Below, one piece after another: positions 1,497 to 16,556 of a DNA stretch of 64,000 nucleotides. The stretch comes from Patescibacteria group bacterium (lineage in GTDB: Bacteria > Patescibacteriota > Patescibacteriia > UM-FILTER-42-10). A program made the position numbers and the translations under genes. Under the pieces are notes generated by a model. The model was given only the letters and a program-made list of their open reading frames with translations, had not been told where the DNA came from and made no database searches. Each line of letters opens with the position of its first letter. The stretch's first letter is position 1. Location: positions 10,341-74,340 of the forward strand of contig JBAYGW010000004.1 in the NCBI GenBank assembly GCA_041666485.1. Direction: 5' to 3'.

Positions 1497-1854
1497 TTAC
1501 TGTCATCTTCGGACTCGATCCGGAGATCCACAAGAATAATGGATTCCTGGATCGTCTACAGTGTAGACGTCCGAGAATGACAACGCTATTGACACCATTA
1601 ACATGTCATGCTATCATACAATCTCAAGTATTTAATGGTTTTATAGTAGCACTTCAGAAAGTAATACAGACACACAATTAATGCGTGTTGTTGCGAAGAT
1701 CAGGCAAACAGAAACCAAAACAGTATCAGTTTTTCTAAGAATGAGTTAATAACGTTATTGAATCCAACCCAAGTAATACAGCGGTTATCAGGATAAAAAA
1801 CGTCACTCGTCGGAAGTTAATTGGGACCCTTTAAATGAGGGTTTTTTGATTTGG

Positions 1855-1900
1855 TATTAATAGGGGTTAGGGTTTAGGATATAGGGATTAGGGTATTGGT
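1855..1900. repeat. G-rich TTAGGG/TAGGAT-like degenerate repeat tract (copy 2)
   Basis: ggtattaataggggttagggtttaggatatagggattagggtattggtaaat shares aggatat(a)ggga..ttagggatt..gtaaat with 293-322. Confidence 0.5.
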
Positions 1901-1911
1901 AAATAACAGCA

Positions 1912-2040
1912 CCCATTGCGAGGAATTCTGTTTTAGCAGAATGACGAAGCAATCCCGATGCTTAATGCATTGGTAATTAAACTTCGTATCGCGTGGGGTT
2001 TATAGAGTTAATCGGGAACCGCCTAAAAAGGCGGTTTTCT
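1912..2040 (+). repeat. Structured intergenic element X, copy 1 (candidate small RNA or repeat), ending in a hairpin/T-run
   Basis: The core is cCATTGCgagg-[ttctg ttttag cagaa]-tgacgaaGCAATcccgatgcttaa, then ggggtttatagag, then aaccgcctaaaaaggcggttttctt. The core is shared with 7490-7545. The outer stem ATTGC/GCAAT is conserved, and the inner hairpin differs between copies but keeps complementarity. Confidence 0.5.
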
Positions 2041-2050
2041 TGATTATATT

Positions 2051-2641
2051 TTGTTTAAGAGCTATTGTGAATGTATAATAAGTAATTTTAATAATGTGCC
2101 TACAAAAAATATTTGGTCGTTGAATATTGATGAATTACTTGTAGCGGATAGACTGAAAAGTCTTTTCAATAAATCAAAATATGAGGTCCTGTTTCCACTA
2201 AATTCTCAAATGAAGGATATTGATTTAGTGCTATTAAAATTGAAAAATAATTCTGTCGCAACAATCCAGGTAAAAGGAAGTAGAACATATGATCCAAAAC
2301 GTGCGGAAGTAGAAAAATATGGAGAAGGATCGGTAGCTTGGTTTAGATTAACAAAGGAATCAATTAATATTCCAACTAATAAGATTGATTACTATATTTT
2401 TGTTTTACATTGCTTTAATGATAATGAACATAAAAAAGAAATAGTCATTAATTATTTAATAGTTCCAAGTAACCAATTTATATCTTTATGTAAGAAAAAG
2501 ACCTTAAGAAAGGGCGGAATTTATCACTTTTTTGTTTGGGTTGATTCTAATCACAATCGTGCGTTTGATTATAATAATAAAGGTAATAAGATTATTAATT
2601 TATCAAAGTATTTAAATAATTGGGAATTAATAAAATATTAA
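2051..2641 (+). CDS. Hypothetical protein, possible PD-(D/E)xK nuclease fold (AT-rich cassette gene 1)
   Basis: 196-aa ORF in ~28% GC DNA. The start is uncertain (TTG 2051, GTG 2093 or ATG 2209). The motif order NIDELLVADRL (helix with Glu) ... KYEVLFP ... KDIDLVLLK ... VATIQVKGS resembles the E...D...(E/Q)xK core of Hjc/restriction-endonuclease-like folds. No other recognisable family. Confidence 0.4.
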   Translation: MFKSYCECIISNFNNVPTKNIWSLNIDELLVADRLKSLFNKSKYEVLFPLNSQMKDIDLVLLKLKNNSVATIQVKGSRTYDPKRAEVEKYGEGSVAWFRLTKESINIPTNKIDYYIFVLHCFNDNEHKKEIVINYLIVPSNQFISLCKKKTLRKGGIYHFFVWVDSNHNRAFDYNNKGNKIINLSKYLNNWELIKY

Positions 2642-2655
2642 TTACTAATATTATT

Positions 2656-3462
2656 ATGCCCAAAATTCTTCATTTTGAAGACGACAAAGTTCTGTCTGAT
2701 ATGTTTGCGATTAAATTTAAGCAAGTTGGATTTGAATATGTAAATTATGAAAGTCCAACTGATAATCCTGTTGATTTAATTAAGAAAGAAAATCCAGATT
2801 TGATTATCATGGATATAATTATGCCGATAATGAATGGTTTTACGGCAACAAAATTAATAATGGCAGATAGATCAATAAACACTATTCCGATTATTGGTCT
2901 TACTAATATGAATCAGGATACTGATGTAAATAAGGGGCTAGGTCTGGGCATGAAAGATTATATGATTAAAGCATCTTTTACTCCGTCACAGATGATTCAG
3001 AAAATTGGGAAGATACTGAATATCGAAGTAAAGATCGAAGAAGTGCATTTTCCTCCGATTAAACCAAATTATTCTATACCGTCTATCCAAGATGATTCGC
3101 CGCATGAGAAAAAAGAGCCGGATCATAAAAAACTATACATTACGCTCAGTATCATAGCAGTAATAATATTAGCAGCTATTCTACCACCTTTTATGATGCC
3201 AAAAGTAAAAAGCGGCATTGTGATTTCTGATAAAGTCAGAAATGAGATATTACTGGCGGTTGATACACATTTTGATCATCCCGCGGAACGGTTGCTGGTG
3301 CTACGTTACCAAATTACAGAAAAATCAGAATGGCGGGGAGCAGATCGGTATTTTGTCTCAGGAATAACAATATTTGGTATAAAGTTTAACATGGCAGATG
3401 TTTATGTAGATGGTGGGATTATTAATATCCCAAGCCTGGAGAACGACATAATTACTAATTAA
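2656..3462 (+). CDS. Response-regulator receiver (REC) domain protein with an internal TM helix and a C-terminal ~85-aa domain (AT-rich cassette gene 2)
   Basis: N-terminus MPKILHFEDDKVLSDMF...NPDLIIMDIIMPIMNGF...IPIIGLT...K is a CheY-like receiver: acidic pair, acceptor Asp in IIMD, conserved Thr and Lys. Followed by the TM helix LYITLSIIAVIILAAILPPFMM and a non-REC C-terminal domain. ATG 2656 is preferred over in-frame TTG 2620, which overlaps the upstream gene. Confidence 0.6.
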   Translation: MPKILHFEDDKVLSDMFAIKFKQVGFEYVNYESPTDNPVDLIKKENPDLIIMDIIMPIMNGFTATKLIMADRSINTIPIIGLTNMNQDTDVNKGLGLGMKDYMIKASFTPSQMIQKIGKILNIEVKIEEVHFPPIKPNYSIPSIQDDSPHEKKEPDHKKLYITLSIIAVIILAAILPPFMMPKVKSGIVISDKVRNEILLAVDTHFDHPAERLLVLRYQITEKSEWRGADRYFVSGITIFGIKFNMADVYVDGGIINIPSLENDIITN

Positions 3463-3469
3463 ATATACA

Positions 3470-3772
3470 ATGGCTGCAGACCCGGAAATAGTTAATGCTA
3501 CAAAAATTTTAACATCTACTGTCGCACGTATACTTATACCATTTATAATCATTATTGGTATTATTGTAGCCGGTATTACTTACTTTAAGATAAAACTATT
3601 TAAGAAGGTTGATGAAATAAAGAAGCGAAAGAAGGATAGCAAAAATAATCATTCTTCTGAATTAAATTGCCCCCTTTGTGGAAATGCACTGGTAGAACGT
3701 TCGGGCAAATTTGGCAGTTTTTATGGTTGTTCAATTTATCCGAAATGTAAATATACAAAGAATATTGGATAA
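3470..3772 (+). CDS. Membrane-anchored topoisomerase-type C4 zinc-finger protein (AT-rich cassette gene 3)
   Basis: 100 aa. TM helix ILIPFIIIIGIIVAGITYF followed by a K/R-rich stretch (positive-inside). C-terminus CPLCGNALVERSGKFGSFYGCSIYPKCKYT is the CxxC...CxxC zf-C4_Topoisom pattern. Confidence 0.6.
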   Translation: MAADPEIVNATKILTSTVARILIPFIIIIGIIVAGITYFKIKLFKKVDEIKKRKKDSKNNHSSELNCPLCGNALVERSGKFGSFYGCSIYPKCKYTKNIG

Positions 3773-3792
3773 ATACACTTTAATATGGAGTA

Positions 3793-3870
3793 ACGGGATT
3801 ACTTCGTCGTCCCACCAAATAGTACTCCTCATAATGGGCACTGTTTTTTTATTCACTCAATGCTATAATG
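3793..3870 (+). promoter_or_regulatory. Repeat element Y, copy 1: ACGGGATT box plus conserved promoter-like module ending in TATAAT
   Basis: acgggattacttcgtcgtcccacc...cataATGGGcaCTGTTTTTTTATtCaCTCAATGcTATAAT (TATAAT at 3864-3869) is ~36/41 identical to 7783-7825. It lies 32 nt upstream of the PIF1 helicase ATG. Confidence 0.5.
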
Positions 3871-3901
3871 CCTCCACAGAGAATTAGCATTAAAAACAGT
3901 A

Positions 3902-5227
3902 ATGAAGCAATCGGAAGCGCTGGATATATTGAAAATGGGACACAATGTGTTTCTGACAGGATTTGCCGGCAGCGGCAAAACTTTTTTGTTAAACAAATAT
4001 ATTGAATACCTGAAAGGTAACAATGTAGAAGTAGGCGTAACCGCGTCTACCGGCATTGCGGCCACCCATATGGAAGGCCGGACGATTCATTCGTGGGCGG
4101 GAATGGGGATTAATGACAAAATGACGAAGACGGAGATTAAGAAGATTTTGAAGAAACCGCATCTGCGGAAGCGGATTGCCAATGCGAGGGTTTTGATTAT
4201 AGATGAAATATCCATGCTTGGCCACCGGCAACTGGATCTGGCGGATCAAATCTGCCGGATCGGAAAAGAGCAGGATCTGCCGTTCGGCGGGATGCAGGTG
4301 ATCCTTTCGGGCGATTTCTTTCAACTGCCTCCGATTAACAGAGCTTCCAATGAGGAGCAGAATAAATTTGCTACCGAGTCTGCTGTTTGGCAGGAAATGG
4401 AACTGAAAATTTGTTATCTGGACGAGCAGTTTCGTCAGTCGGATCAGTTATTTACAAAAATTTTAAATGAGATCCGGGATGACCGCGTGACCGCGGATAC
4501 GATCAGCACTCTGATGACCCGCCTGAATATTGAGGTCGCACCGGATGTGATCCCTACCAAGTTGAATACCCACAATGCTGATGTGGACAGCATTAATGAG
4601 CGGGAACTTGCTAAGATTCAGAGCAAAGAAGTTCTGTTTGAGATGAATGCGACCGGTTCTCCCGAGATTGTAAAAATTTTAAAGAAGGGGTGTCTCGCAC
4701 CGGAGGAGATAATATTAAAACAAGGCGCGGTAGTGATGTTTGTAAAAAATAATTTCAACAAAGGATACGTAAACGGGACACTTGGGACTGTAGTAGGTTT
4801 TGATCCGGAAAAGGGGTGGCCGGTGGTGGAGATCCGCTCGGGAAAAAGAATCCTCGCCGAGCCGGAAAGTTGGGGGATTGAAGAAGAGGGAAAAGTAATC
4901 GCGGAAGTGGACCAGGTACCCCTGCGTTTAGCGTGGGCGATCAGCGTGCATAAAAGCCAGGGGATGAGTTTGGAAACCGCGGAGATTGACCTGAGCCGGG
5001 CTTTTGAACGCGGGATGGGTTATGTTGCTTTGTCCCGCGTGCGGACTCTGGACGGCATAAAGCTGACCGGTTTGAATAATATGGCGCTTTCTGTGAACAA
5101 AGATGTGGTGGGGCTGAATAGGGAATTTATCATCCGTTCGCAAATGGATTCGGACCAACTGAAGGGGTTCGGTAAAAAGCGGGTACACAAAATGCAGAAG
5201 GATTTTATAAACGAGGCGCGGGGATAA
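3902..5227 (+). CDS. PIF1-family 5'-3' DNA helicase (RecD/Pif1 superfamily 1)
   Basis: Walker A GFAGSGKT and Walker B LIIDEISML. Pif1 signature GDFFQLPPI. C-terminal motif AISVHKSQGMSLETAEIDL. Confidence 0.85.
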   Translation: MKQSEALDILKMGHNVFLTGFAGSGKTFLLNKYIEYLKGNNVEVGVTASTGIAATHMEGRTIHSWAGMGINDKMTKTEIKKILKKPHLRKRIANARVLIIDEISMLGHRQLDLADQICRIGKEQDLPFGGMQVILSGDFFQLPPINRASNEEQNKFATESAVWQEMELKICYLDEQFRQSDQLFTKILNEIRDDRVTADTISTLMTRLNIEVAPDVIPTKLNTHNADVDSINERELAKIQSKEVLFEMNATGSPEIVKILKKGCLAPEEIILKQGAVVMFVKNNFNKGYVNGTLGTVVGFDPEKGWPVVEIRSGKRILAEPESWGIEEEGKVIAEVDQVPLRLAWAISVHKSQGMSLETAEIDLSRAFERGMGYVALSRVRTLDGIKLTGLNNMALSVNKDVVGLNREFIIRSQMDSDQLKGFGKKRVHKMQKDFINEARG

Positions 5228-5420
5228 ACAACGGTGGATCTCCGGACCAAGTCCGAAGATGACAATTGCTTATTAATTTGTCATTCCCGCGCAGGCGGAA
5301 ATCCAGAAAGGTGACACGGCGGCGTGCCACCCCCTTCTTATTTATGGGTAGGGTTTTTTATTTCTTATTCAAATGGTATAATAACAATTACCAATTTATT
5401 CAATTATTAATCTCAAAAAC

Positions 5421-5987
5421 ATGAAAAAAAATGAAGCTGCCAGAATATATGATGTCAGCAAAAATGAAAGACGACAAGGAGAAATACAGCCTATTCTTCC
5501 GGTAGAAGAACCGGAAGATCCTGATATACTGCCGTCCGCCAAGATGACGTCTATGAATGAATTTGAGCTAGCAGAACAACAGCTCAAAGCTGAAGAAAAG
5601 CGCCAAAAAGAATTGGCGGTTCTGCGCGCTAATATGGCTAATTTTATCAATGAAGCTGGAACGACTGTGATTAATTTTGATAAACCGGGAACTGTACCCG
5701 ATGAAAATTTTGAAGATACTGAAGAGATGGGCCGGATTAATGAAATATTCGGGGTTATTGAACAAAGCGGTTTGGATCAGAGAACAATTGATCTACTGTA
5801 CGAAACTATGGAGAATCTGATTATTGCCATTACACCGGAGCAAATTGACCAGGAAAGAATAGATCAGATAATTGAAGTGATTGAAGCTAGCGAATTAGAG
5901 TCCACTCGTAAGCAAGATTTAATCCTGGAGCTGAAAAACATGATCGCGACAGCAATAATGGATATGGACGATGATGCGGTGGCATAA
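5421..5987 (+). CDS. Hypothetical acidic protein
   Basis: 188-aa ORF, Glu/Asp-rich, with no recognisable motif. Clean start following a T-rich hairpin region after the helicase gene. Confidence 0.5.
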   Translation: MKKNEAARIYDVSKNERRQGEIQPILPVEEPEDPDILPSAKMTSMNEFELAEQQLKAEEKRQKELAVLRANMANFINEAGTTVINFDKPGTVPDENFEDTEEMGRINEIFGVIEQSGLDQRTIDLLYETMENLIIAITPEQIDQERIDQIIEVIEASELESTRKQDLILELKNMIATAIMDMDDDAVA

Positions 5988-6007
5988 ATAATCCACTATA
6001 TAAAATT

Positions 6008-6649
6008 ATGCGTAAAATTCTATTGGCCTCGCGGGGTACTTATGTAACGGACGGAAAGTACGATCTTTTTGATAAACCCCGCAAAGAAATAAAATGGGCT
6101 TACATTACGACAGCCGGAAAAAGCGTGCCGAGAGTTGAATATATTAAAAAACATGAACAGCGGATGCGCGAGCTCGGCTGGGATTTTGAGGAAATTGATA
6201 TTGACGGAAAAACCCCGGATCAGTTAAGGAAAATTTTAGCGGATAAGGATGCAATTAATATGCTGGGCGGCAATTCCTTTTTTCTGATCAAATGCATCAG
6301 AGAAAGCGGATTCAAAGCAGTACTGGAAGAATTTCTAGACAGAGGAGGGGTATATTGCGGTTCCAGCGCCGGGTCATATGTTGCGTGCCCCAGTATGGAA
6401 ATGGCAACCTGGAAAAAACCCGCCAAATTTGACCGCCACGGCGTTACTGATTTTACCGGGATGAATCTGGTGCCGTTTCTGATTGTTGCGCACTGCACGC
6501 CGGAAATTGTTGCAATGGTTAAACCATATGTTGAACAGTCAAAATACGAAGTAAAATTATTAAATGATCAGCAGGCGATTCAGATAAATGGGGATCAGAT
6601 AGAATTTTTGGAAGATCTGGAAATACGATCTAAAGATTTCGGAGGATAA
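6008..6649 (+). CDS. Peptidase S51 family (dipeptidase E-like)
   Basis: GGNSFFL and the nucleophile motif GSSAGS, plus a downstream His (VAHC), match the PepE/cyanophycinase-like S51 layout. Confidence 0.7.
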   Translation: MRKILLASRGTYVTDGKYDLFDKPRKEIKWAYITTAGKSVPRVEYIKKHEQRMRELGWDFEEIDIDGKTPDQLRKILADKDAINMLGGNSFFLIKCIRESGFKAVLEEFLDRGGVYCGSSAGSYVACPSMEMATWKKPAKFDRHGVTDFTGMNLVPFLIVAHCTPEIVAMVKPYVEQSKYEVKLLNDQQAIQINGDQIEFLEDLEIRSKDFGG

Positions 6650-6652
6650 ATT

Positions 6653-7057
6653 ATGACAGACAATAAAGAACCGGAATTAAATCCCTATGACAATGAAGCC
6701 CGCGAGCGGTGGGGTAATACGCAGTTTTATCAGCAGTCCCAAAAGCGTGTAAAAGCGCTGGGAGAGGACGGGTTGGGGGAGGTTATCAGGAAAAGTCAGG
6801 AGCTAATTCAGAAAATTGCCGGTGCGATGAAAAAGGGAAAAACGGCTCAAAGTGAGGCCGTGCAAAAATTAATTGACCGTCATTATAACGCGCTCAATGC
6901 CTTCTATGATCCGACTTTGGGACTATATCGCGGACTGGCTGAAACATATATCAGCGACGAGAGATTTAAGGAAAATTATGAAAAAGTGGCGGTTGGACTG
7001 GCCCAATTTATGCATGATGCCATGATTTATTATGTTGATACAAAGGAAACTGAATGA
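6653..7057 (+). CDS. TipAS antibiotic-recognition domain protein (stand-alone, no MerR HTH)
   Basis: RBS ggagga. [20 protein letters not shown]...[34 protein letters not shown] matches the TipAS-domain signature (ERWG.T..Y..S). Confidence 0.7.
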
Positions 7058-7470
7058 AAGAACTGCAACATATTGAAATAGTATTGAGAGCAATTATTGT
7101 TTTTAATGATAAACTTTTAATGTGCGTTTTACATGATCAACCACCGATTCATTTTTTGCCCGGCGGGCATTTGGAATTCGGTGAAACCTTGGAAGATTGC
7201 CTAAGAAGGGAGATTAAAGAAGAAATGGGTGTTGAAATAAAATCAATGGAATTTTTGAAACAATTTGAAAATATTTATGATGTGCATGGAATAAAACATC
7301 ACGAAATAAATTTGGTACATAAAGTTTCATTAAGCATAGAAAACACGGAAGAAGTAAAAGCACAAGAGGATCATATTTCATTTACTTGGGTTGAAATTGA
7401 AAAGATGAAGGACGTTAAAATGCTGCCGCCAGTGATACATCAATACTTGGTAGAATATTTTTCCAAGTAA
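7054..7470 (+). CDS. NUDIX hydrolase
   Basis: Nudix box [24 protein letters not shown] (Gx5Ex7REUxEExGU). ATGA start overlaps the upstream stop. Confidence 0.8.
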
Positions 7471-7489
7471 TCACAGAACAATTACAGTA

Positions 7490-7606
7490 ACCATTGCGAG
7501 CCCATAAATATGGGCGAAGCAATCCCGATACTTACACCATGAGGGTTTTATAGACGGGATTACCACGCCCCCTGTTTAGAGTCAAAGCGAGCCAGTGTTT
7601 TTTTAA
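7490..7606 (+). repeat. Structured element X, copy 2, followed by an ACGGGATT box
   Basis: aCCATTGCGAG-[cccat aaat atggg]-CGAAGCAATCCCGATaCTTAca...gggttttatagACGGGATTaccacgcc...gagccagtgttttttt. The inner hairpin differs from copy 1 (ttctg/cagaa versus cccat/atggg) but still pairs. Confidence 0.5.
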
Positions 7607-7699
7607 GAGAAGCCTTCGATTCCGCTCCGCTGCACTCAGGCAATATCCCATGAGAATATTTGGTGAGCCTGTCGAATCATACTTGAAAAGAGGTATGGA

Positions 7700-7716
7700 A
7701 CGGGATTGCCACGTCT
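7700..7716 (+). repeat. ACGGGATTRYCACGYC box (third occurrence)
   Basis: acgggattgccacgtct. The consensus occurrences are 3793, 7554, 7700 and 7756 (cgggattgtcacgtc). Confidence 0.45.
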
Positions 7717-7755
7717 TGCGTTCGCAAGTCTCGCAATGGTTACTATCATTCTGTC

Positions 7756-7826
7756 CGGGATTGTCACGTCCCGCTTTGCGTGATTCACAATGGGTGCTGT
7801 TTTTTTATCCTCTCAATGATATAATT
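7756..7826 (+). promoter_or_regulatory. Repeat element Y, copy 2: ACGGGATT box plus conserved promoter-like module. Its TATAAT sits 6 nt before the YgjP ATG, so the transcript is possibly leaderless
   Basis: cgggattgtcacgtcccgctttgcgtgattcacAATGGGtgCTGTTTTTTTATcCtCTCAATGaTATAAT with TATAAT at 7820-7825. ATG at 7832. Confidence 0.5.
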
Positions 7827-7831
7827 CGTGC

Positions 7832-8401
7832 ATGCAAAAGATAATTACTATTGATAATCAGGCACTGACCTACACCGTGCGGAAAAGCCTGCGGGCCAGA
7901 AGTATGCGCCTCGCGGTGCACAGCGACGGCACAGTGGTGGTGACCATGCCTTTCCGGTTTCCCGGCAGTCTGGCGGATAAATTTGTACATGAGAAATATG
8001 ACTGGATTATTCGGAAGATTGCATATTTCAAACAAAGCAAAAAACCCGCATCACGGGTATATACCAAAAAAGATTATTTGAAATACCGGGAAGCCGCAAA
8101 GAAATTTGCACTGGAGCGAGTGGAGCATTTTAATGCAACATATAATTTTACGTATAATCGGATAAGTATCCGCAACCAAAAAACAAGATGGGGGAGTTGT
8201 TCCGGGAAAGGCAATCTGAATTTCAATTATAAAATAATCCATTTACCTTTGCGGATTGCCGACTATATTATTGTCCACGAGTTGTGCCATTTGAAGCAAA
8301 TGAATCATTCTAAAAATTTCTGGGATTTAGTGGGAGTATTCTTTTCGGACCACAAGGCAATCAGAAAAGAATTAAAGCGGTTGAGTATTGATCTGGGCTA
8401 G
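7832..8401 (+). CDS. YgjP-like metal-dependent hydrolase (DUF45 / M48-like, HExxH)
   Basis: WGSCSGKGNLNFNYKIIHLP...IIVHELCHLKQMNHSKNFWDLV is the DUF45/YgjP signature. Confidence 0.8.
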   Translation: MQKIITIDNQALTYTVRKSLRARSMRLAVHSDGTVVVTMPFRFPGSLADKFVHEKYDWIIRKIAYFKQSKKPASRVYTKKDYLKYREAAKKFALERVEHFNATYNFTYNRISIRNQKTRWGSCSGKGNLNFNYKIIHLPLRIADYIIVHELCHLKQMNHSKNFWDLVGVFFSDHKAIRKELKRLSIDLG

Positions 8402-8455
8402 AGGCTTTTATTTAAATTTGGTATAATAGAACTATAATTAATAATCATTATATTT

Positions 8456-9019
8456 ATGAATGAAAGTATAAAATATCCGCATGCAGCGGAAGAAGGAGTA
8501 ACCCCGGAAATGGATCAGGCCCGAAAACTGGGGTTATTAGAACCTATGGAGGATACGCTGGAATGGTTGGATATTAAGGCAGATATTCATCTCAAATACA
8601 ATGACAAAAAAGCCAGACAGCTAGAAGAGCAAACGCAATCTGATTATTTAATTGCAAAAGAAAAGGATGATGTGGGTAATTTGCAGGATCCGCATGAGAG
8701 ACCAAATCTTGAATCAAAATTTGCTATTGATACAGGACTGGTGGAAGCAAGAAGGTTGCGTGAAGCAAATAACACAATGGAAAAAGAAATCGCCGACATG
8801 CTTCTAGGTCATGATTTTGAACAGTTTCGCACACCAAACCAAGCACAATTACAGGCTATTCGTGAAGCACTTCACGTCGCCTATCAGCAAGATCCAGAGA
8901 TCAATGATCGGATAAAGGCGAAAGAACGCATCAGAGAAATTATTGCATTAGAAAAACAGTTAGCTGAATTGCTTGTAATTTTTGGACAAGAGGTGCAGGA
9001 TGTTGTCAGTAGACAATAA
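8456..9019 (+). CDS. Hypothetical protein
   Basis: 187-aa ORF with host-like composition and no recognisable motif. Confidence 0.45.
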   Translation: MNESIKYPHAAEEGVTPEMDQARKLGLLEPMEDTLEWLDIKADIHLKYNDKKARQLEEQTQSDYLIAKEKDDVGNLQDPHERPNLESKFAIDTGLVEARRLREANNTMEKEIADMLLGHDFEQFRTPNQAQLQAIREALHVAYQQDPEINDRIKAKERIREIIALEKQLAELLVIFGQEVQDVVSRQ

Positions 9020-9153
9020 TAATTTAGTGATATGAATTACGTCCAACCCCCCCCTAACCCCCCTCCTTAGGAAGGAGAGGGGGTGCGGTTCGCAAGGAAT
9101 AGGGAAGTGTTTAGTTCCTCTCCTTTTTAAGGGGAGGATTTAGGAGGCGTAAT

Positions 9154-9195
9154 AAAAAAATACCGCCGGGCTCTCAGAGGAGAGGGGCGGTTTTC
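9154..9195 (-). terminator. Intrinsic terminator for the minus-strand gene 9223-10125 (possibly bidirectional)
   Basis: The sequence aaaaaaataCCGCCgggctctcagaggagagGGGCGGttttcgg reads on the minus strand as a GC-rich hairpin followed by a T7 run. Confidence 0.55.
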
Positions 9196-9222
9196 GGATT
9201 GCCTACAGAGTAGGCGAAGGTG

Positions 9223-10125
9223 CTATTCCAAACGCTCTTGGAGCGGGTCAAAGTCCGAGTAGAGCGCGAGCAGGAAATCAATCATGTCGGCTCCGAAATC
9301 CTCGTCGGATACGGCGTACTGCTCAATCGTGAGCATGTTGGCGCTCACAACCAAGTCGGTTCCGTAGAAGCCGACATCAAGCGGAGATTCAATCGGAACG
9401 CATTTGCGTATCCGATCTTCGTCATCGGTCAACGGACCCATCGTGTAGGCGTAGGGTTCATGACCTTCCGCAACGGTGATCTGCTGGCGCTGCAAAGCGC
9501 TTTCGCGAGTGGCGGCGAGCCACTTCCCTTCGGTCATCTCGTTGATGATCATGAACACCGCATGGTGTGCCTCGTACTCCTCAAGGAGCCACGGGTCGGA
9601 AAGCGGTTCCGTAACCGTTCCCTCTTCGTCGTAGTCGTTCTCCGTGCAGTCCCGGGCGTGGACGATTTCATGTGCGAGGCAGAGCCCGCGCACGAGCTGT
9701 CCGAAACCGCAGGTTGTGAGCTTCACCGAACGCGATTCGCAGAAGAATTCCGCGAAAATCGCATCTTCCTCCCGAAGGAGCGGAATCGGATTCGGATCCG
9801 CCACGATGAAGAAGTCTAGCGGACTGTCCAGTGTTTCCACCACCTCAAAGAGCTGGGAATCAACGAACTTCGCACGCACGGCATGCGCGTCGTAGAACTC
9901 CAGGAGCTCCTTGGCGGTTGCCGACTGCTCGGCGAGTGCCGCGAGGTCTTCCCGCGCCGTGTCAAGAATCCGGTTCTCGGGCTCGGTCAGCACAGGTAGA
10001 GCCAGTGCGGAGGAGACGGGCTCCTCCTGAGACTGAGCAGGGACACAGTAGGCGAAGGCGCACAGGGTGGGAATGAGGGACAGGTACAAAGCGACCTTAT
10101 GCCACGTACGCATGAGCGGTTCCAT
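9223..10125 (-). CDS. Secreted protein with HExxH...E zinc-binding-like motif (putative metalloprotein/peptidase), high-GC island
   Basis: Signal peptide MRTWHKVALYLSLIPTLCAFAYCVPAQSQ. Motifs CLAHEIVHARDC and, ~30 aa downstream, LLEEYEAHH. Codon usage is ~60% GC, unlike the flanks. The overlapping plus-strand ORFs are antisense artefacts. Confidence 0.55.
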   Translation of the reverse strand: MEPLMRTWHKVALYLSLIPTLCAFAYCVPAQSQEEPVSSALALPVLTEPENRILDTAREDLAALAEQSATAKELLEFYDAHAVRAKFVDSQLFEVVETLDSPLDFFIVADPNPIPLLREEDAIFAEFFCESRSVKLTTCGFGQLVRGLCLAHEIVHARDCTENDYDEEGTVTEPLSDPWLLEEYEAHHAVFMIINEMTEGKWLAATRESALQRQQITVAEGHEPYAYTMGPLTDDEDRIRKCVPIESPLDVGFYGTDLVVSANMLTIEQYAVSDEDFGADMIDFLLALYSDFDPLQERLE

Positions 10126-10390
10126 CCTTTCGGGTCTTCCTAGTCTTTTCTTTGGTTGCTGTGTGAAAATTGTGCCTGTACTACGATCCTCGGTCAGAAA
10201 CCTGCAAATCTCCTTTCAACAGGAATTCTGACTACACTGTATAACATGATATTATATTTTTGTCCAGAGTGGTTAAAGATAATTAATCATTCGCGAATTA
10301 AAAATGTATATAAATCTTGCAAAAAACTGCTGTTATGCTAGGGTTGCGATAGTCGTGAGTTATTTGATGCCTGCAGAAAGGACGGATGCT

Positions 10391-10612
10391 ATGAGTCATC
10401 GGTTCACTCCAGCCCGCCTCAACGAGGTATTGGTTGCTGCCAATGCTTCGCGCCAGCCGGAAGCGGTTGAAGCGACAACTCTGCTGCGGGACTTCATGGA
10501 GCGCGAAGATCTGATCGGCTCCGATGAAACCGACCGGCATGTGCATGTGCCGGAAGACCTGGTCGGCATCATTGAATACCCCTGGAACGGGCATTCCCAG
10601 TCGGCTCTCTAG
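10391..10612 (+). CDS. Small hypothetical protein (start uncertain)
   Basis: gaaaggacggatgctATG gives an RBS-like sequence. Followed by two hairpins and a T-run (10619-10668). It competes with antisense ORF 10298-10642, which has no such signals. Confidence 0.3.
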   Translation: MSHRFTPARLNEVLVAANASRQPEAVEATTLLRDFMEREDLIGSDETDRHVHVPEDLVGIIEYPWNGHSQSAL

Positions 10613-10641
10613 TACATCTGCGGTTCCCAGAAACCGCGCCA

Positions 10642-10668
10642 CTCTTTCCTGACTGAAAGAGTTTTTTA
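10642..10668 (+). terminator. Intrinsic terminator
   Basis: ctctttc-ctgactg-aaagag followed by ttttttattt. Preceded by a second hairpin, gcggtt-cccagaa-accgc. Confidence 0.5.
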
Positions 10669-10688
10669 TTTAAAACATTATGACAATT

Positions 10689-10726
10689 AAAAAAATCGAG
10701 GGTGAGTCCGGATGGGCTCACTCTCG
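10689..10726 (-). terminator. Intrinsic terminator for minus-strand gene 10802-11344
   Basis: aaaaaaaTCGAGGGTGAGTCCggaTGGGCTCACTCTCG forms a 12-bp stem with a T-run on the minus strand. It shares the AAAAAAATCGAGGG.GAG head with the terminator at 13003. Confidence 0.55.
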
Positions 10727-10801
10727 GGTTAAAGGAATGATCAGATGATGAAAAGCAGAAGGTGTGGTGCAACAGTGGACGCGCGGGATCGCGGGTCAGG
10801 A

Positions 10802-11344
10802 TCAGAGGTCGATGCGCTCAGTCGGAGCGTCACCGCCCTGATCGTCCGCAGCGGGAGCAGTCGCCTCCATGGCCTGCCCGGTCTCGGCACCAGCGGCAGC
10901 CTGGTCGCCGGCCGCGACAACGGCCGGGTCCACCTCGGGAGCGGCGTTGACATCCGCAGCGGCGGCCACGACGGGAGCCTCCACGCTGGCGGCAGCGAGC
11001 GGGGTCGCATCCGTCCCATCCTCGTCACCGAGCTGGGGATTGCCGACGGTTGCGGCGGCCTGATGCTCGGCGTGAGCCTCGTCCTCGTCCTCGGGCACGT
11101 CCTCCCAGGGCACGTCCTCGGGGATCAGCAGGGTGCCGATCATGAGGTCGCCTTCGGCGATGAGGTCGTAGAGACCGACTTTGGCCACCGTCGGCTCCCC
11201 CTCGTCGGACAGGCCGAGGATCACGATCAGGTGCTGGTTCTCGTCGTACTGGATCCCTCTCGCCTTGAGGGTCTCCAGGACGGGGGTGCCTTCCTCCCCC
11301 TCGAACAGCGGATGGAGACGGAGGCAGGGTTTTGTTCTTGACAT
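10802..11344 (-). CDS. Hypothetical acidic protein with an Ala/Asp/Glu-rich low-complexity C-terminus
   Basis: RBS AAGGAG lies 8 nt before ATG (MSRTKPCLRLHPLFEGEEG...). The ordered N-domain (...HLIVILGLSDEGEPTVAKVGLYDLIAEGDLMIGTLLIPEDVPWEDV) is weakly reminiscent of DUF1292-type small acidic proteins. The overlapping 198-aa plus-strand ORF is rejected. Confidence 0.5.
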   Translation of the reverse strand: MSRTKPCLRLHPLFEGEEGTPVLETLKARGIQYDENQHLIVILGLSDEGEPTVAKVGLYDLIAEGDLMIGTLLIPEDVPWEDVPEDEDEAHAEHQAAATVGNPQLGDEDGTDATPLAAASVEAPVVAAAADVNAAPEVDPAVVAAGDQAAAGAETGQAMEATAPAADDQGGDAPTERIDL

Positions 11345-11490
11345 CGCACACACTCCTTCTTGGGAACGGGACCATAATTTGCCGACGGCTTATCCGCCAG
11401 CAGCGAACATGTCAGATGTTATCACGCCTTTTTGTCTATGTCAAAATGCCTTTCAAACTGTGGATTTACAGACGGCTGCTAATCCTTTAT

Positions 11491-11508
11491 GCGGTTTTTG
11501 AAAACCGC
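11491..11508. promoter_or_regulatory. Perfect inverted repeat GCGGTTTT-tg-AAAACCGC in a divergent intergenic region (candidate operator)
   Basis: gcggtttttgaaaaccgc has 8-bp arms and a 2-nt spacer. It lies between the start of the minus gene at 11344 and the promoter of the plus gene at 11578. Confidence 0.4.
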
Positions 11509-11577
11509 AATTAATTTATTCTCACTGAGGAGAGTTTATTTATTGCAAAAAAATAAAATAATGCTTTGTATTTATAG

Positions 11578-11606
11578 TTGACATTCTATAATCATGGGTG
11601 TTAAAT
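11578..11606 (+). promoter_or_regulatory. Sigma70-like promoter for gene 11660
   Basis: TTGACA (11578-11583), then a 17-nt spacer, then tgTTAAAT with an extended-10 TG. RBS aaaggggg lies 8 nt before ATG 11660. Confidence 0.45.
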
Positions 11607-11659
11607 GGGCATGAAAACCAAAACACGAAACCGTTGCTCTTTGAAAGGGGGTGACCACC

Positions 11660-12085
11660 ATGCTAGCAGTCTTTCAAATTGAACCGGGCGCATTGTTCGG
11701 GATAATACTAGTGGCTGTAATAGCAGCAATCGGAATTTGGGTACAAGTTGATGCTGCTACTGCAAAAACCCGGCAAGAAGAGGAATTCAAAGAACAAAGG
11801 AGATTAGCAAAAGAGAAAAAAAATCAGGAATACAGAGAGGGGTCGGCTCGCGAGGAACAATCAGATGAGGAAAGGTACAGGCAAAAACAAGTAAGCGATG
11901 AAGAACGTGATCGGGAAATGCGACCAATACTGGAAGCTGCTATAGCAAGAGGGGAAAAGGTTTGTTGGACACATTATATTGTTGGTGTCCAATATTGCAA
12001 TAGGGGGTGTGGTCGTTGTCTTTGTCTCGAAGGTGGCCCAATGTGTGATCAGTGTTGGTTTGATGATCATGACGACGATGACTAG
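11660..12085 (+). CDS. Small membrane-anchored protein with a charged linker and a Cys-rich, poly-Asp C-terminus
   Basis: TM helix FGIILVAVIAAIGIW. Linker QEEEFKEQRRLAKEKK...DEERDRE. Tail CWTHYIVGVQYCNRGCGRCLCLEGGPMCDQCWFDDHDDDD with 8 Cys in 31 aa. Confidence 0.5.
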   Translation: MLAVFQIEPGALFGIILVAVIAAIGIWVQVDAATAKTRQEEEFKEQRRLAKEKKNQEYREGSAREEQSDEERYRQKQVSDEERDREMRPILEAAIARGEKVCWTHYIVGVQYCNRGCGRCLCLEGGPMCDQCWFDDHDDDD

Positions 12086-12173
12086 TTCGTTCAAGACTCT
12101 TTAGTTTAGAGTCTTTTTTATCGAATTGTTAATTATATTTCACCTGAATAATAAATTGTGCTACGATTAAGCT

Positions 12174-12905
12174 ATGAATTTAGCAGAGAAATTGGAGTTG
12201 TACTTCTTTGACCCAATGAGAGGGGAGGAGGACTATTTTAAACGGTTCAAAGAGTGCACCGATATTCAGATTTCCTACGCGCCGCTGTATTTATTACGCC
12301 GGCAGATATTATTGTTGACCGGCAAACTGATTACATTTCCCAACCCGCCCATTCATCAGATTCCGTATTTTTCCGCCATTCTCCTGGCACACATTGCGGT
12401 AAAAAAAATGACTATGCTGTCCAGCGGTCAGGACTACGTTAAGTACGGCGATTATATTTTGTTTTATGATAAATACATGGGCATGAAGCCGCTGGATTAT
12501 GTGGCGGCCAGACTTCTGCGTAATGGAATAGAACACAATAATTTCCAGTTGTATATGCGTCTGAAAGCGGACAGCGCACCAATGTTCCGCGAGTTCGCCC
12601 GATATTTTATTAATAATAAAATTATGACCCGTGAGCAGCTGAGGTCTATGCGCAATTTTAACGTAACGTTTGCGATGGTGGAAACAGGTCACACTGGCGC
12701 GATTGTTTCTCCACCGGAACTGTTAAAATTTGATCCGGAGCTGGGTATCGCACGGATCCAGTTCTATATTCAGCCATATCTATTTTTGGAAGCATTTGAA
12801 AAGGGGGTGCAGAAAGTGGAACAAGATATCCGTGATTCAAAAGAATTGAAAGAGAATTTTGACCGTGCTGTGATTGAAGCAAACTGGATGGATGTGCATC
12901 CGTAA
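12174..12905 (+). CDS. Hypothetical protein
   Basis: 243-aa ORF, ~42% GC, with no recognisable motif. Confidence 0.45.
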   Translation: MNLAEKLELYFFDPMRGEEDYFKRFKECTDIQISYAPLYLLRRQILLLTGKLITFPNPPIHQIPYFSAILLAHIAVKKMTMLSSGQDYVKYGDYILFYDKYMGMKPLDYVAARLLRNGIEHNNFQLYMRLKADSAPMFREFARYFINNKIMTREQLRSMRNFNVTFAMVETGHTGAIVSPPELLKFDPELGIARIQFYIQPYLFLEAFEKGVQKVEQDIRDSKELKENFDRAVIEANWMDVHP

Positions 12906-13002
12906 TCGGTACTTAAAAAGTGTAATTAGTAATTGGTAACTGGTAATTCGTAATCTCTAATATTCATCTGAATTGATGTGTGTTTTTGTTTTAGGAAAAT
13001 AA

Positions 13003-13054
13003 AAAAAATCGAGGGGGAGAGAACAATGCTTGCGCAATGTTTCTCCCGCCTCGG
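13003..13054 (-). terminator. Intrinsic terminator for the OMP/lipoprotein operon (minus strand)
   Basis: aaaaaaaaTCGAGGGGGAGagaacaatgcttgcgcaatgtttCTCCCGCCTCG is a long imperfect hairpin with a T8 run on the minus strand, immediately downstream of the stop at 13092. Confidence 0.5.
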
Positions 13055-13091
13055 GGTGACCCCGCTAAGCGGGATCTAGGAACGACTAGTG

Positions 13092-15197
13092 CTATTCGGC
13101 CGGATTGTACGTGGTACTTTCCAGACGAACGACGGGGATTTCATCGTAGGCTGAGGGGACTTCGTAGCATCCCATCAGCTTCTGCATGTACACCCAGCCG
13201 GTGCACTTGTTGGCGTCGCCGGTCCAGACGATACGAATCTCCTGGATATTCTCAAGATCGGCTTCACCGAAGTCCACCAGCAGGTAGGCCGGACGCTGCG
13301 GGTACAGATCCGGGATCGTCCAGTAACGAACGGAGCCGTTAGTGTACCGGAACTCCATGATCGTGTCCTCGTGCTGGAGGACATCAAACTTGAACAGTCC
13401 CCACATCCGCTGCCAGTAGGGGTGACCGGTCGTCACGAACGCGCAGTCCGTGAGATCGCCCGGTCCCACCTTGAAGTCGTTGATGTCAACTTCCCAGCAG
13501 ATGGTCTCCGGATCCGAAGCGGACCGGACGCGGATGTTGATTTCGCGTTGCTGAACTTCGCCGGTGACGTTGTCCGTCACCTCAACGTAGAACAGGTGAT
13601 TACCCGCGTTCAGCTCAGGATACTCGCAGACCGGGGTGGTCGCGAACGGAAACTGCTCCAGGTAACCCCACTTCACCGAGTTATCGCCGGAGCCACCCTG
13701 GATGATCACCTGGAGGCTCGCGGTCACAGGTTCCACTTCGTCCTGCGGACTGCCGAAGATCTGGGTGGTCATCGGCGGGTACTGCAGTGCTTTCACGCGG
13801 ATGGCGACGTCCTCGTTCAGAACGAGACCGGTGACGTTGTCCGTCACCTGCACGTGGAACACGTGTACGCCGGCCATCAGACCCATCACTTCAACTGCCG
13901 GAGTGGTGCCGACGACGACGTTACTGTCGTTGGTCCACTCGTAGCTGAAGTCGCCCGAACCGTTATTCACGGTCACCAGCATATTGCCGTTCACCGGCTC
14001 GGTCTCGTCCTGCGGGGTAACGAAGGTTGTGATACCCATCGGGATGATGGGATCGTCCTCGCGGGGCAGAGCGGTGACGGTAACGGTTTGCTGTCTCACC
14101 TGGCCGGTTGCGTCGGTGACGGTGGCCTGGAAACAGCGGGTGCCGGGCTGGGTGATACTGAGACGCACACTGCGTGTGGTTGCGAAGACGTTGCCGTTCT
14201 CGCTCCACACGTGCACGAAGGGGTAGATCCCTCCGAACTCGTGCATGGTCAGCGTGGTCTCAAACGAAACCGGGATCCCACTCGTGGAAGCAGTCGCATC
14301 CATGTCGAGCGGAGTCGGATCGTCCGTGTCCACATACACCGTCAAGTCCTGGAAGGTGGAGCCGTTGCCGGTGCCATCGTCCAAGAAAACGGTAAAGGTA
14401 TGTGTGCCGTCGGGGAGATTCGGGTATGCGGCGAACAGACTCTGCGAGAACATAACGCCCTCGTAGAACCACCGGTAATGGTAGTTTCCGTCACCGCCGG
14501 ACCCGTGCGCTTCCAGATAGGCTTTGTCGCCGATCGCGAAGCCGAAGGCATCCAGCGTCAGAGCGTGGAGTTCCCCAGGAGCGCCGGCACAGATGGTACG
14601 GTTGAAGGTGACTTCGTTGCCGTCGGCATCGGTGATCGTGCCGACCACTGCGTAGTTTCCCGGCTGTTCGGCCCGGAACCGGATGGACGGTTCGGTGTAC
14701 ACCGCACCGTTCACGATGATGTCAAACGAGTAGGGCAGTTTCCCACCCCAGCCGATGAGCGAGATTGACGCTTCGTAAGGCGCCATCAGGTCGTTCGGTG
14801 TGACGATCATCATACCCTGAAGCGGGCTGTCGGTTTCCACTTCCTGCTCGCTGGCCGTGACGGTCAGCTCGCGGGAGATGGTGGTGTCCGGGTAGACGAC
14901 CTTGAGCTCGAAGCTCCAGGAGCCGGGTTCGGGCGCCGTGAACACAGTGTCCGTTCCGGTAGCGTAGAACTGCCCATCCTTGTAGATTGCGACGTGTTCC
15001 GGATCGCCAAGCACGGTTCCCCAGAGGGTAGCCGTATCGACGTAGGGCCGAAACAGGTTGAGCGGTGAGGCGTTGAACGTCGCGCCGAATTCCGGAAGCA
15101 CAGGTGCCTGCGGCGCCACCAGATCAGCCTCGCTCTCGCAACCAGCGAGTACGAGGCCGAAGGCGCAGATCGCAAGCAAAGCGATGATTCTCTTCAT
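13092..15197 (-). CDS. Large lipoprotein with repeated Ig-like/PKD-like beta-sandwich domains (high-GC island)
   Basis: RBS AGGAGG lies 6 nt before ATG. Lipoprotein signal MKRIIALLAICAFGLVLAGC (lipobox LAGC). Internal repeats are visible, e.g. FVTPQDETEPVNGNMLVTVNNGSGDFSYEW and FGSPQDEVEPVTASLQVIIQGGSGDNSVKW. The 465-aa antisense ORF 13371-14768 is rejected. Confidence 0.7.
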   Translation of the reverse strand: MKRIIALLAICAFGLVLAGCESEADLVAPQAPVLPEFGATFNASPLNLFRPYVDTATLWGTVLGDPEHVAIYKDGQFYATGTDTVFTAPEPGSWSFELKVVYPDTTISRELTVTASEQEVETDSPLQGMMIVTPNDLMAPYEASISLIGWGGKLPYSFDIIVNGAVYTEPSIRFRAEQPGNYAVVGTITDADGNEVTFNRTICAGAPGELHALTLDAFGFAIGDKAYLEAHGSGGDGNYHYRWFYEGVMFSQSLFAAYPNLPDGTHTFTVFLDDGTGNGSTFQDLTVYVDTDDPTPLDMDATASTSGIPVSFETTLTMHEFGGIYPFVHVWSENGNVFATTRSVRLSITQPGTRCFQATVTDATGQVRQQTVTVTALPREDDPIIPMGITTFVTPQDETEPVNGNMLVTVNNGSGDFSYEWTNDSNVVVGTTPAVEVMGLMAGVHVFHVQVTDNVTGLVLNEDVAIRVKALQYPPMTTQIFGSPQDEVEPVTASLQVIIQGGSGDNSVKWGYLEQFPFATTPVCEYPELNAGNHLFYVEVTDNVTGEVQQREINIRVRSASDPETICWEVDINDFKVGPGDLTDCAFVTTGHPYWQRMWGLFKFDVLQHEDTIMEFRYTNGSVRYWTIPDLYPQRPAYLLVDFGEADLENIQEIRIVWTGDANKCTGWVYMQKLMGCYEVPSAYDEIPVVRLESTTYNPAE

Positions 15198-15206
15198 CTT
15201 GACCTC

Positions 15207-16274: not shown

Positions 16275-16556
16275 TATGACAGCGGGTGAAACCTCGAACG
16301 GGAACCAAACAAAACCAAAAACCACGTGAAACGACAGATTTTCAAATAGCACCTCTCCTAAAGATGAAACATCTCAGTAGAGGGGAATAAGGACATTTAC
16401 AAACATCCTGATTCCTCCCTTCTAACATGCAAAAAGCGTGGATTTATAGGTGAAATTATCCACTAAATATTATTTGAATTTATAAAGTATTTTTTCTGAT
16501 ATTACCACCTGATAGTAAATAATTACGACTGACTACTATATGCTTATTTAATCGTT

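Follow-up and report, generated by a model that had tools for sequence, protein, structure and literature searches.

Within a stretch of 64,000 nt from a Patescibacteria group bacterium (assembly GCA_041666485.1, contig JBAYGW010000004.1, positions 10,341 to 74,340 of the forward strand; hereafter the window), three consecutive genes upstream of a PIF1-family helicase gene had been proposed, in a preliminary description made from the sequence alone, to form one undescribed accessory system inserted between two repeat elements, X and Y. In the present analysis the best explanation, to which we assign a probability of roughly 0.6, is that the 1.95-kb segment from 1895 to about 3844 represents a mosaic insert of accessory DNA that is specific to this strain and lies at a hypervariable intergenic hotspot, comprising a solitary nuclease (gene 1) and a rare membrane pair (genes 2 and 3).

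Homologs of gene 2 or gene 3 were located near gene-1 homologs in none of 61 genome loci (6 kb of flank on each side) and not at the one viral locus, and genes 2 and 3 together, or gene 2 by itself, were found elsewhere without gene 1. Based on this combination the three genes do not constitute one co-inherited system, and the missing co-occurrence already refutes the proposal of such a system for the most part. For practical purposes the chief outcome is a negative one, in that a catalogue entry for the locus as a three-gene system would not be justified. The earlier statement that it matches no named system was borne out, as none of the three proteins matched a family of PADLOC-DB 2.0 at E <= 1.

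Anatomy of the segment and its absence from close relatives

As described beforehand, three operon-like open reading frames were found on the plus strand (Table 1), separated by 14 and 7 nt and tightly packed with no internal terminator. Gene 1 can be read from a TTG at 2051 or a GTG at 2096; the gene callers and all homologs favour 2096, resulting in a protein of 181 aa, and genes 2 and 3 encode 268 and 100 aa, respectively. The next gene downstream (3902-5227) encodes the PIF1-family helicase. A TATAAT hexamer upstream of gene 1 was not called in a scan for consensus promoters, as it lacks a -35 hexamer; judged from its sequence and position, it is likely the promoter of the three-gene unit.

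The content of guanine and cytosine (GC) had been given as about 28% for the three genes and about 45% for the flanks, which holds in part. Gene 1 with 26.7% fits the first value, whereas gene 2 (34.3%), gene 3 (31.7%) and the entire insert (31.8%) lie above it. Likewise, the PIF1 gene shows 47.7%, but the mean of the window is 39.8% (standard deviation 7.3) and its composition is very patchy, ranging from 27% to 60% per kb. Only 1.9% of the 600-bp intervals comprise a GC content of 28% or less, and gene 1 is one of three such places. Among the three genes, gene 1 is the only one with an extreme composition.

Two syntenic relatives (L070 and L071) were recovered by a search with the PIF1 helicase, which is 83-84% identical in them. 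The window and both relatives have in common the gene order DUF2196 … PIF1, a homolog of the unannotated frame 5421-5987, S51 peptidase, NUDIX and YgjP. In L070, window 1584-1894 aligns with 7634-7938 and window 3845-5232 with 7944-9331, leaving a junction between 7938 and 7944. In L071 the match to window 1814-1894 joins the match from 3845 onward directly, with the junction between 7939 and 7945. Missing from both relatives as a single block are the repeat copy R1, the following terminator, genes 1-3 and most of the repeat copy R2 (both repeats are described below). The whole unit of repeat, genes and repeat is an insertion/deletion difference (indel) and represents strain-specific accessory DNA. 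The assumption of accessory or mobile DNA is thus upheld with respect to strain specificity and directly joined flanks in two relatives, but not with respect to a single system. The further assumption that cargo had entered a pre-existing X-Y module has to be given up, since X, the genes and most of Y are jointly missing from the relatives.

Between DUF2196 and PIF1 each of the three genomes contains different genes, and this interval is therefore considered a hotspot. PIF1 itself is a conserved resident gene at the same position in the relatives without the insert. It does not belong to the acquisition, and a role of PIF1 in the cassette was rejected for this reason. In L071 the same hotspot (6130-7856) holds two tandem paralogous genes of about 280 aa, each followed by a copy of the terminator of window 1814-1840. 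In another Patescibacteria genome (L012, 3286-9779) the neighbours of a gene-1 homolog are an N4/N6 methylase and a PvuII-like endonuclease; a PIF1 homolog follows 1.8 kb downstream and is itself followed by a large serine recombinase. A hotspot upstream of PIF1 may exist throughout the clade.

Gene 1, a putative solitary nuclease

The arrangement E...D...QVK pointed out earlier as compatible with a nuclease fold proved to be invariant in 39 homologous sequences, and the fold was borne out. Residues E13, P34, D43, Q58 and K60 are identical in all 39 sequences (35-69% identical to gene 1) and follow the order E…(P)D…(D/E/Q)xK of the PD-(D/E)xK superfamily on a restriction-endonuclease-like alpha/beta core. 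With its conserved residues of the catalytic type, gene 1 can be assigned to the PD-(D/E)xK nuclease fold. A Foldseek comparison with the PDB resulted in weak matches (E >= 0.05) of the right fold; at the level of sequence, neither gene 1 alone nor the 39-sequence profile matched a nuclease among the PDB sequences. Searches of Pfam, NCBIfam, PHROGs and PADLOC with gene 1 gave nothing usable, the best match being phrog_5018 with an E of 0.002 and unknown function.

Altogether, 106 homologs of about 180 aa (36-69% identity) were collected, none of which (0 of 106) contains a Pfam domain; by their labels they come from Patescibacteria, Nanoarchaeota, Pacearchaeota and Micrarchaeota. In a set of about 185,000 species genomes, one per species, gene 1 was found in 63, adding Woesearchaeota, Aenigmatarchaeota, Omnitrophota and a few distant matches. 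The surroundings of the gene are variable: at the 61 loci its 116 immediate neighbours correspond to 114 Pfam families, of which the commonest, DUF2779, was observed five times. Within 4 kb of the homologs, N4/N6 methylases (9), C5 methylases (6) and large serine recombinases (7) were found, together with parts of type I, IIG and III restriction systems. Methylases within this distance were present at about 15 of the 61 loci, belong to two unrelated classes and are adjacent in only 2. At 53 of 58 loci the gene-1 homolog shows a lower GC content than its surroundings. Among 2.9 million viral contigs a single one carries a homolog, located beside a serine recombinase.

The 64-kb window comprises no methylase according to four methylase queries, so that a cognate enzyme of a type II restriction-modification (R-M) system was not found. 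Neither an Rfam family nor a tRNA was detected in the window. The Rfam search of 12 loci with gene-1 homologs yielded only tRNAs, a SAM riboswitch and LOOT RNA, none of them at the gene, and ARAGORN placed tRNAs near a few of 60 loci, none hosting it. Gene 1 consequently does not show the intron or intein residence of a homing endonuclease of the I-Ssp6803I type. Taken together, a solitary restriction-type or selfish nuclease would fit these observations best.

At five loci (L029, L019, L020 and others) the gene-1 homolog is directly preceded by a DUF2779 protein of about 500 aa. Since such a protein is also encoded directly downstream of a gene-2 homolog (L069, 10807-12306), DUF2779 is a recurring island companion of both modules.

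Genes 2 and 3, a rare membrane pair

The domains described previously for genes 2 and 3 were recovered with high significance. Residues 5-117 of gene 2 match Pfam Response_reg (E 3.5e-15, 56.6 bits compared to a cut-off of 30.2), and all canonical receiver residues are present (E8, D9, D10, D53, T83 and K105). Gene 3 matches Zn_ribbon_Top1 (PF01396) over residues 66-99 (E 6e-15, 55.1 bits compared to a cut-off of 32), with C67, C70, C87 and C93 as the four ligands of a C4 zinc ribbon. Each protein contains one strongly hydrophobic segment, at about 157-185 in gene 2 and about 10-45 in gene 3, which agrees with the single transmembrane (TM) helix proposed for each. In the predicted structure of gene 2 the receiver is confident, with a predicted local distance difference test (pLDDT) value of 73-96 in most blocks of 10 residues. 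Two queries containing HisKA, a weak test for a histidine kinase near gene 2, matched only the receiver of gene 2 itself among the open reading frames of the window.

Among 5.8 billion proteins, the full-length homologs of gene 2 make up no more than three clusters, and for gene 3 likewise only three protein clusters were found. Without gene 1, the pair is kept in L066-L068 at 67-73% identity. L066 is a different Patescibacteria contig from the same sample, in which the two proteins are 67% and 73% identical to those of the window; the similarity of the DNA starts only 27 nt upstream of gene 2, which indicates a module boundary between genes 1 and 2. In both genomes, the window and L066, genes 2 and 3 show a low GC content compared to the flanks. 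The gene 2 of L069 is preceded by a type I R-M operon that carries a ThsB-like TIR protein, a PDC-S06 ATPase and a YgjP-like protein. The expected co-occurrence with defence islands was accordingly found for gene 2 (L069) and for the pair (L066), but not for all three genes together.

The surroundings of the pair in L066 form a 7-kb low-GC island (4147-11122) with a methylase and endonuclease of the HpaII type, Vsr and SIR2-HerA (HerA with E 4.6e-177 in PADLOC). Two tandem copies of repeat R lie at its left edge and the gene 2/3 pair at its right edge; beside the zinc-ribbon gene no right-hand copy of R was found, and a different repeat (S) was present instead.

The receiver of gene 2 is a member of a broad family of Patescibacteria receivers whose C-termini vary. 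The TM helix and the following 85-aa domain (window 3040-3462) occur in addition as stand-alone membrane-anchored proteins of about 100 aa (P0137-P0147) with a conserved motif HFDxPxQR…Y.I.E…G.T.FG. Pfam gave no match, neither for the C-terminal domain nor for these stand-alone relatives.

Repeat R at the borders of the segment

An alignment of five copies revealed that the elements X and Y are one repeat, R, in opposite orientations. The similarity of X and Y noted earlier is thus real, while their description as two elements is not correct. R is a hairpin of 55-62 nt of the consensus form AAA-ACAG(Y)(R)CCCATTGCGAG, followed by a variable hairpin and by GACGAAGCAATCCCG. Copies in the window lie on the plus strand at 1899-1960 and 7478-7530 and on the minus strand at 3791-3852, 7698-7754 and 7755-7808. 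Chance as a source of the similarity, which had been considered, is ruled out: the motif CATTGCGAG…GAAGCAATC occurs twice in the window compared to 0 occurrences in 100 shuffles, and the five-copy profile finds copies outside its training set in L070 (E 2e-10) and L066 (E 3e-9). These further copies, at 7455-7509 and 16666-16721 in L070 and at 4147-4257 in L066, occupy non-homologous sites.

Most copies fold into an outer ATTGC/GCAAT stem around an inner hairpin, which comprises 7 bp in R1 and differs wholly in sequence from copy to copy. Compensatory changes of the outer stem were observed in R2 (ATTAT/GTAAT) and R5 (ATTGT/ACAAT); R2 alone folds poorly. After R in minus orientation come seven consecutive T and an extended -10 box, either TGCTATAAT at 3861-3869 (PIF1) or TGATATAAT at 7817-7825, upstream of the YgjP-like gene. 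Based on this succession, Y can be explained as a hairpin resembling a terminator, joined to the promoter of the following gene. X additionally takes in an independent terminator-like hairpin at 2014-2039, of which a near-copy was found in L066 (6851-6887) after the vsr gene.

The second locus, at which X and Y had been reported with nothing between them, instead contains three copies of R. This gene-less unit of 0.36 kb (7473-7831) has no counterpart in L070 and L071, in which the NUDIX gene directly adjoins the YgjP gene. Since it is missing in the relatives, it is itself a presence/absence polymorphism and not a pre-existing empty module.

Both R-bounded units possess terminal inverted repeats, R1(+)/R2(-) and R3(+)/R4,R5(-), respectively. 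Like miniature inverted-repeat transposable elements (MITEs) and insertion sequences (IS), they show empty sites in relatives and copies at unrelated sites. An integron/attC cassette was rejected, because the repeats flank the genes in opposite orientations and not in the same one; no serine recombinase turned up in the window, and integron-type tyrosine integrases were not searched for. A reading as an IS200/IS605-like element was rejected as well, as the end hairpins are inverted and not on one strand.

The R core CCATTGCGAG-hairpin-GAAGCAATCC was found in four viral contigs of IMG/VR (L092-L095, 44-68% GC), which by our own rough estimate is about the number expected by chance for a database of that size and was not used as evidence. 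These matches may reflect a much wider superfamily of hairpin repeats.

Proposed function of the two modules

The insert is flanked by a conserved non-coding locus on one side and the resident PIF1 gene on the other, and its cargo would consist of two modules with separate evolutionary histories, probably transcribed as a single unit between the TATAAT at 2074 and the R2 hairpin with its T-run. The first module, gene 1, would be a stand-alone, metal-dependent PD-(D/E)xK DNA endonuclease with no fixed partner; its activity and specificity are inferred. The family appears to move horizontally among Patescibacteria and DPANN archaea, often amid R-M genes, nucleases and serine recombinases, and the enzyme may act alone as a solitary restriction-type nuclease. 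Its tolerance by a host without a cognate methylase could be explained by modification-dependent cutting, as in BisI and NhoI, or by a long or rare target, as in I-Ssp6803I. Small enzymes of the BisI family cut only modified DNA (PMC11347163), and I-Ssp6803I recognises a long, rare site (PMC3384342).

In the second module, gene 2 would contribute a phosphorylatable receiver with one TM helix and a small outside domain, and gene 3 a cytoplasmic zinc ribbon that is held by a TM helix and belongs to the topoisomerase type that binds ssDNA. The two proteins may interact in the membrane, where phosphorylation of the receiver by an unlinked kinase could gate the hold of the zinc ribbon on DNA. Their role is probably tied to the defence islands in which they are found. 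This working model of a phospho-controlled tether and release of DNA is drawn from the architecture and three genomic contexts.

Alternative explanations

The proposal of a single undescribed defence or abortive-infection system with three components (genes 1-3) acquired together, in which the receiver serves as sensor, the zinc ribbon as membrane-bound DNA binder and the nuclease as effector, would suit their packing on one strand, the absence of an internal terminator, the AT-richness of all three genes and the confirmed nuclease fold. It could also be related to the fact that topoisomerase-type zinc ribbons are often fused to PD-(D/E)xK/NERD nucleases. Nevertheless, the 61 genome loci and the viral locus of gene 1 without gene 2 or 3 nearby, the pair of genes 2 and 3 that lacks gene 1 in L066-L068, the solitary gene 2 of L069, and the module boundary 27 nt upstream of gene 2 in the comparison with L066 render it very improbable. 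Gene 1 might instead be a free-standing homing-type, selfish endonuclease that cuts alleles without it, with the rest of the insert hitch-hiking or unrelated. We consider this unlikely, since no group I intron, intein or tRNA gene hosts gene 1 in the searches described above, no conserved target gene adjoins it, no similarity to I-Ssp6803I was found at the level of sequence and only 1 of 2.9 million viral contigs carries a homolog. For genes 2 and 3, a housekeeping role as an accessory of the envelope or of DNA uptake, for example as a membrane anchor for incoming ssDNA under phospho-control, would explain the occurrence of the C-terminal domain of gene 2 as small membrane proteins in ordinary contexts (one between recX and a DedA-family gene), the membership of the receiver in a broad family with varied C-termini and the missing PADLOC match; the defence neighbours would then result from shared variable regions. 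Such a role is improbable in view of only three full-length gene 2 clusters in 5.8 billion proteins, a chromosomal position that differs in each genome, a GC content below that of the flanks and the finding that all three contexts are islands of defence or nuclease genes.

The direction of the change is addressed by the explanation that nothing moved in, that the window represents the older state and that the relatives deleted the segment via short homologies, R being an ordinary terminator that spread or converged and not the end of a mobile unit. Several observations speak for it and weigh against a mosaic insert. The junction of the relatives keeps about 15 nt like the outer end of R (GGGTGCAGATTTATT compared to GGGTGCTGTTTTTTT), followed by the same promoter, and a GGG(T) microhomology is present at both edges, so that the junctions agree equally well with loss from the relatives and with gain in the window. 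In minus orientation, R followed by seven T resembles an ordinary terminator. The junction alignments showed no target-site duplication at either R-bounded unit, and no cognate transposase or REP-associated tyrosine transposase (RAYT) was identified with them. On the other hand, gene 1 is among the lowest-GC 2% of the window, genes 2 and 3 lie at a different chromosomal place in L066, in both relatives the second R-bounded unit is lacking as well, exactly where two genes abut, and copies of R occupy non-homologous sites in other genomes. A deletion is therefore possible, if somewhat doubtful, and the insertion assumed in the mosaic explanation may account for the difference. Further points on the unfavourable side of that explanation concern the modules themselves. 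The gene-1 homolog of L012 adjoins a methylase 1.8 kb upstream of a PIF1 homolog, and some members of the family may be classical type II enzymes or tied to the PIF1 hotspot. Residues 129-268 of gene 2, including the C-terminal domain, could not be modelled (pLDDT < 50). In L069 gene 2 is followed by DUF2779 and not by the zinc-ribbon gene, the association of genes 2 and 3 with defence comprises only three independent contexts, and the stand-alone relative next to recX lies in an ordinary one. A more far-reaching version would regard the R-bounded units as undescribed non-autonomous cassettes of Patescibacteria with their own terminator and promoter that are exchanged at intergenic hotspots, genes 2 and 3 as a phospho-controlled membrane-anchored DNA-sensing defence module and gene 1 as a new solitary nuclease family exchanged between ultra-small bacteria and archaea; in its entirety we hold this to be quite improbable.

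Table 1. Features of the segment and of the second R-bounded unit, in coordinates of the window.
Feature	Position	Strand	Basis or remark
Indel segment compared to close relatives	1895-3844	+	Right edge ambiguous (3836-3850); holds R1, terminator, genes 1-3, R2
R1, hairpin repeat copy, core of X	1899-1960	+	Five-copy alignment; nhmmer E 2.5e-12 (self-trained model); fold
Intrinsic-terminator-like hairpin between R1 and gene 1	2014-2039	+	11-bp stem, then T-rich tail
TATAAT hexamer	2074-2079	+	17 nt upstream of the GTG of gene 1; read from the sequence
Gene 1, putative solitary PD-(D/E)xK endonuclease, 181 aa	2096-2641	+	Family without Pfam or NCBIfam model
Gene 2, receiver (residues 1-125), linker, one TM helix (about 157-185), C-terminal domain of about 85 aa	2656-3462	+	
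Gene 3, short N-terminus, TM helix (about 18-39), Lys/Arg-rich linker, C-terminal C4 zinc ribbon	3470-3772	+	
R2, inverted R, core of Y	3791-3852	-	Five-copy alignment and profile search; hairpin, then T7 on the plus strand, resembling a terminator of the three-gene unit
Extended -10 TGCTATAAT of the PIF1 promoter	3861-3869	+	Common to relatives; outside the indel
Second, gene-less R-bounded unit	7473-7831	+	R3 7478-7530 (+), R4 7698-7754 (-), R5 7755-7808 (-), plus promoter

Further observations around the segment

The non-coding stretch 1584-1856 upstream of the insert is 90-94% identical to the relatives (L070 7634-7938, L071 5788-6059), compared to about 79% for the flanking genes. It contains a near-consensus promoter-like site (TTGACA-17-TATCAT, 1589-1617) and a terminator (1823-1845) and is a candidate small RNA of about 220 nt. 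For this candidate no Rfam match above threshold was obtained in the window or in 1480-2060, and its folding energy is unremarkable (z -0.4).

After terminators, telomere-like G-tracts (GGGG TTA GGG … GGG ATTA GGG) were observed at 1860-1894, 195-225 and 285-312. The first is conserved in the relatives directly upstream of PIF1 and lies here 1.95 kb upstream owing to the insert. PIF1 helicases unwind G-quadruplexes, and a regulatory G-quadruplex at 1860-1894 is conceivable.

A second family of hairpin repeats, TGTCATCTTCGG…CCGGAGATCCAC, is present at window 1501-1531 and 5234-5264, in L071 (5487-5569) and in L066 (11333-11398). The pair in the window (31 nt, 94% inverted) brackets the small-RNA-like locus, the insert and PIF1. 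Its downstream copy and a GTCATTCCCGCGCAGGCGGAAATCC element at 5287-5311 are absent from the relatives.

At about 9000-16400 the window, otherwise of about 40% GC, comprises a block of 55-72% GC with long open reading frames on the minus strand (for example 13092-15197, 701 aa). The composition of this block suggests foreign DNA or an assembly join.

Significance and comparison with known systems

Gene 1 defines a compact and highly conserved family of putative nucleases, candidates for solitary restriction or homing-type enzymes, that spans two domains of life and has no database model, a new family inside a well-known superfamily. The combination of a receiver-TM protein with a TM-zinc-ribbon protein is a rare architecture beside R-M and SIR2-HerA genes and a reasonable, though tentative, candidate for screening. 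Little is known about immunity and gene exchange in Patescibacteria and DPANN archaea, whose genomes are tiny. The locus provides a clean natural example of a hotspot that differs between near-identical strains.

Among the known PD-(D/E)xK enzymes, the homing endonuclease I-Ssp6803I (PDB 2ost) resembles gene 1 in fold alone, homology at the level of sequence not being detected. I-Ssp6803I resides in a group I intron of a cyanobacterial tRNA gene, whereas gene 1 is free-standing and comprises an extra C-terminal beta-hairpin and a conserved KYLNNW tail. Compared to I-Ssp6803I, the structural match to modification-dependent enzymes of the BisI family (NhoI, N-terminal domain of Eco15I) is weaker and likewise without sequence similarity. 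The archaeal Holliday-junction resolvase Hjc is a widely conserved core protein, in contrast to gene 1, which is rare, found in variable contexts and atypical in GC content.

By analogy, genes 2 and 3 can be set beside ToxR/ToxS-like pairs and response regulators, with a canonical receiver in gene 2 and a module of the DNA-binding type at the membrane in the adjacent gene 3. Unlike these, gene 2 has no DNA-binding or enzymatic output, and gene 3 carries a zinc ribbon instead of a winged helix.

The insert shares with defence islands and other variable hotspots (R-M, SIR2-HerA, Thoeris-like TIR clusters) its position in a hotspot that varies among three close genomes, and both the gene 2/3 pair of L066 and gene 2 of L069 abut bona fide defence systems. 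In contrast to known islands, none of genes 1-3 matches a described defence family. Like repetitive extragenic palindromic (REP) sequences, bacterial interspersed mosaic elements (BIMEs) or MITE-like repeats, such as the Correia elements with their promoters and terminators, R is a short, dispersed, intergenic hairpin repeat that occurs in inverted pairs near terminator-like and promoter sequences and varies in presence between close relatives. It differs from them in its low copy number, in the lack of a target-site duplication and in the fact that one of its inverted pairs encloses three genes.

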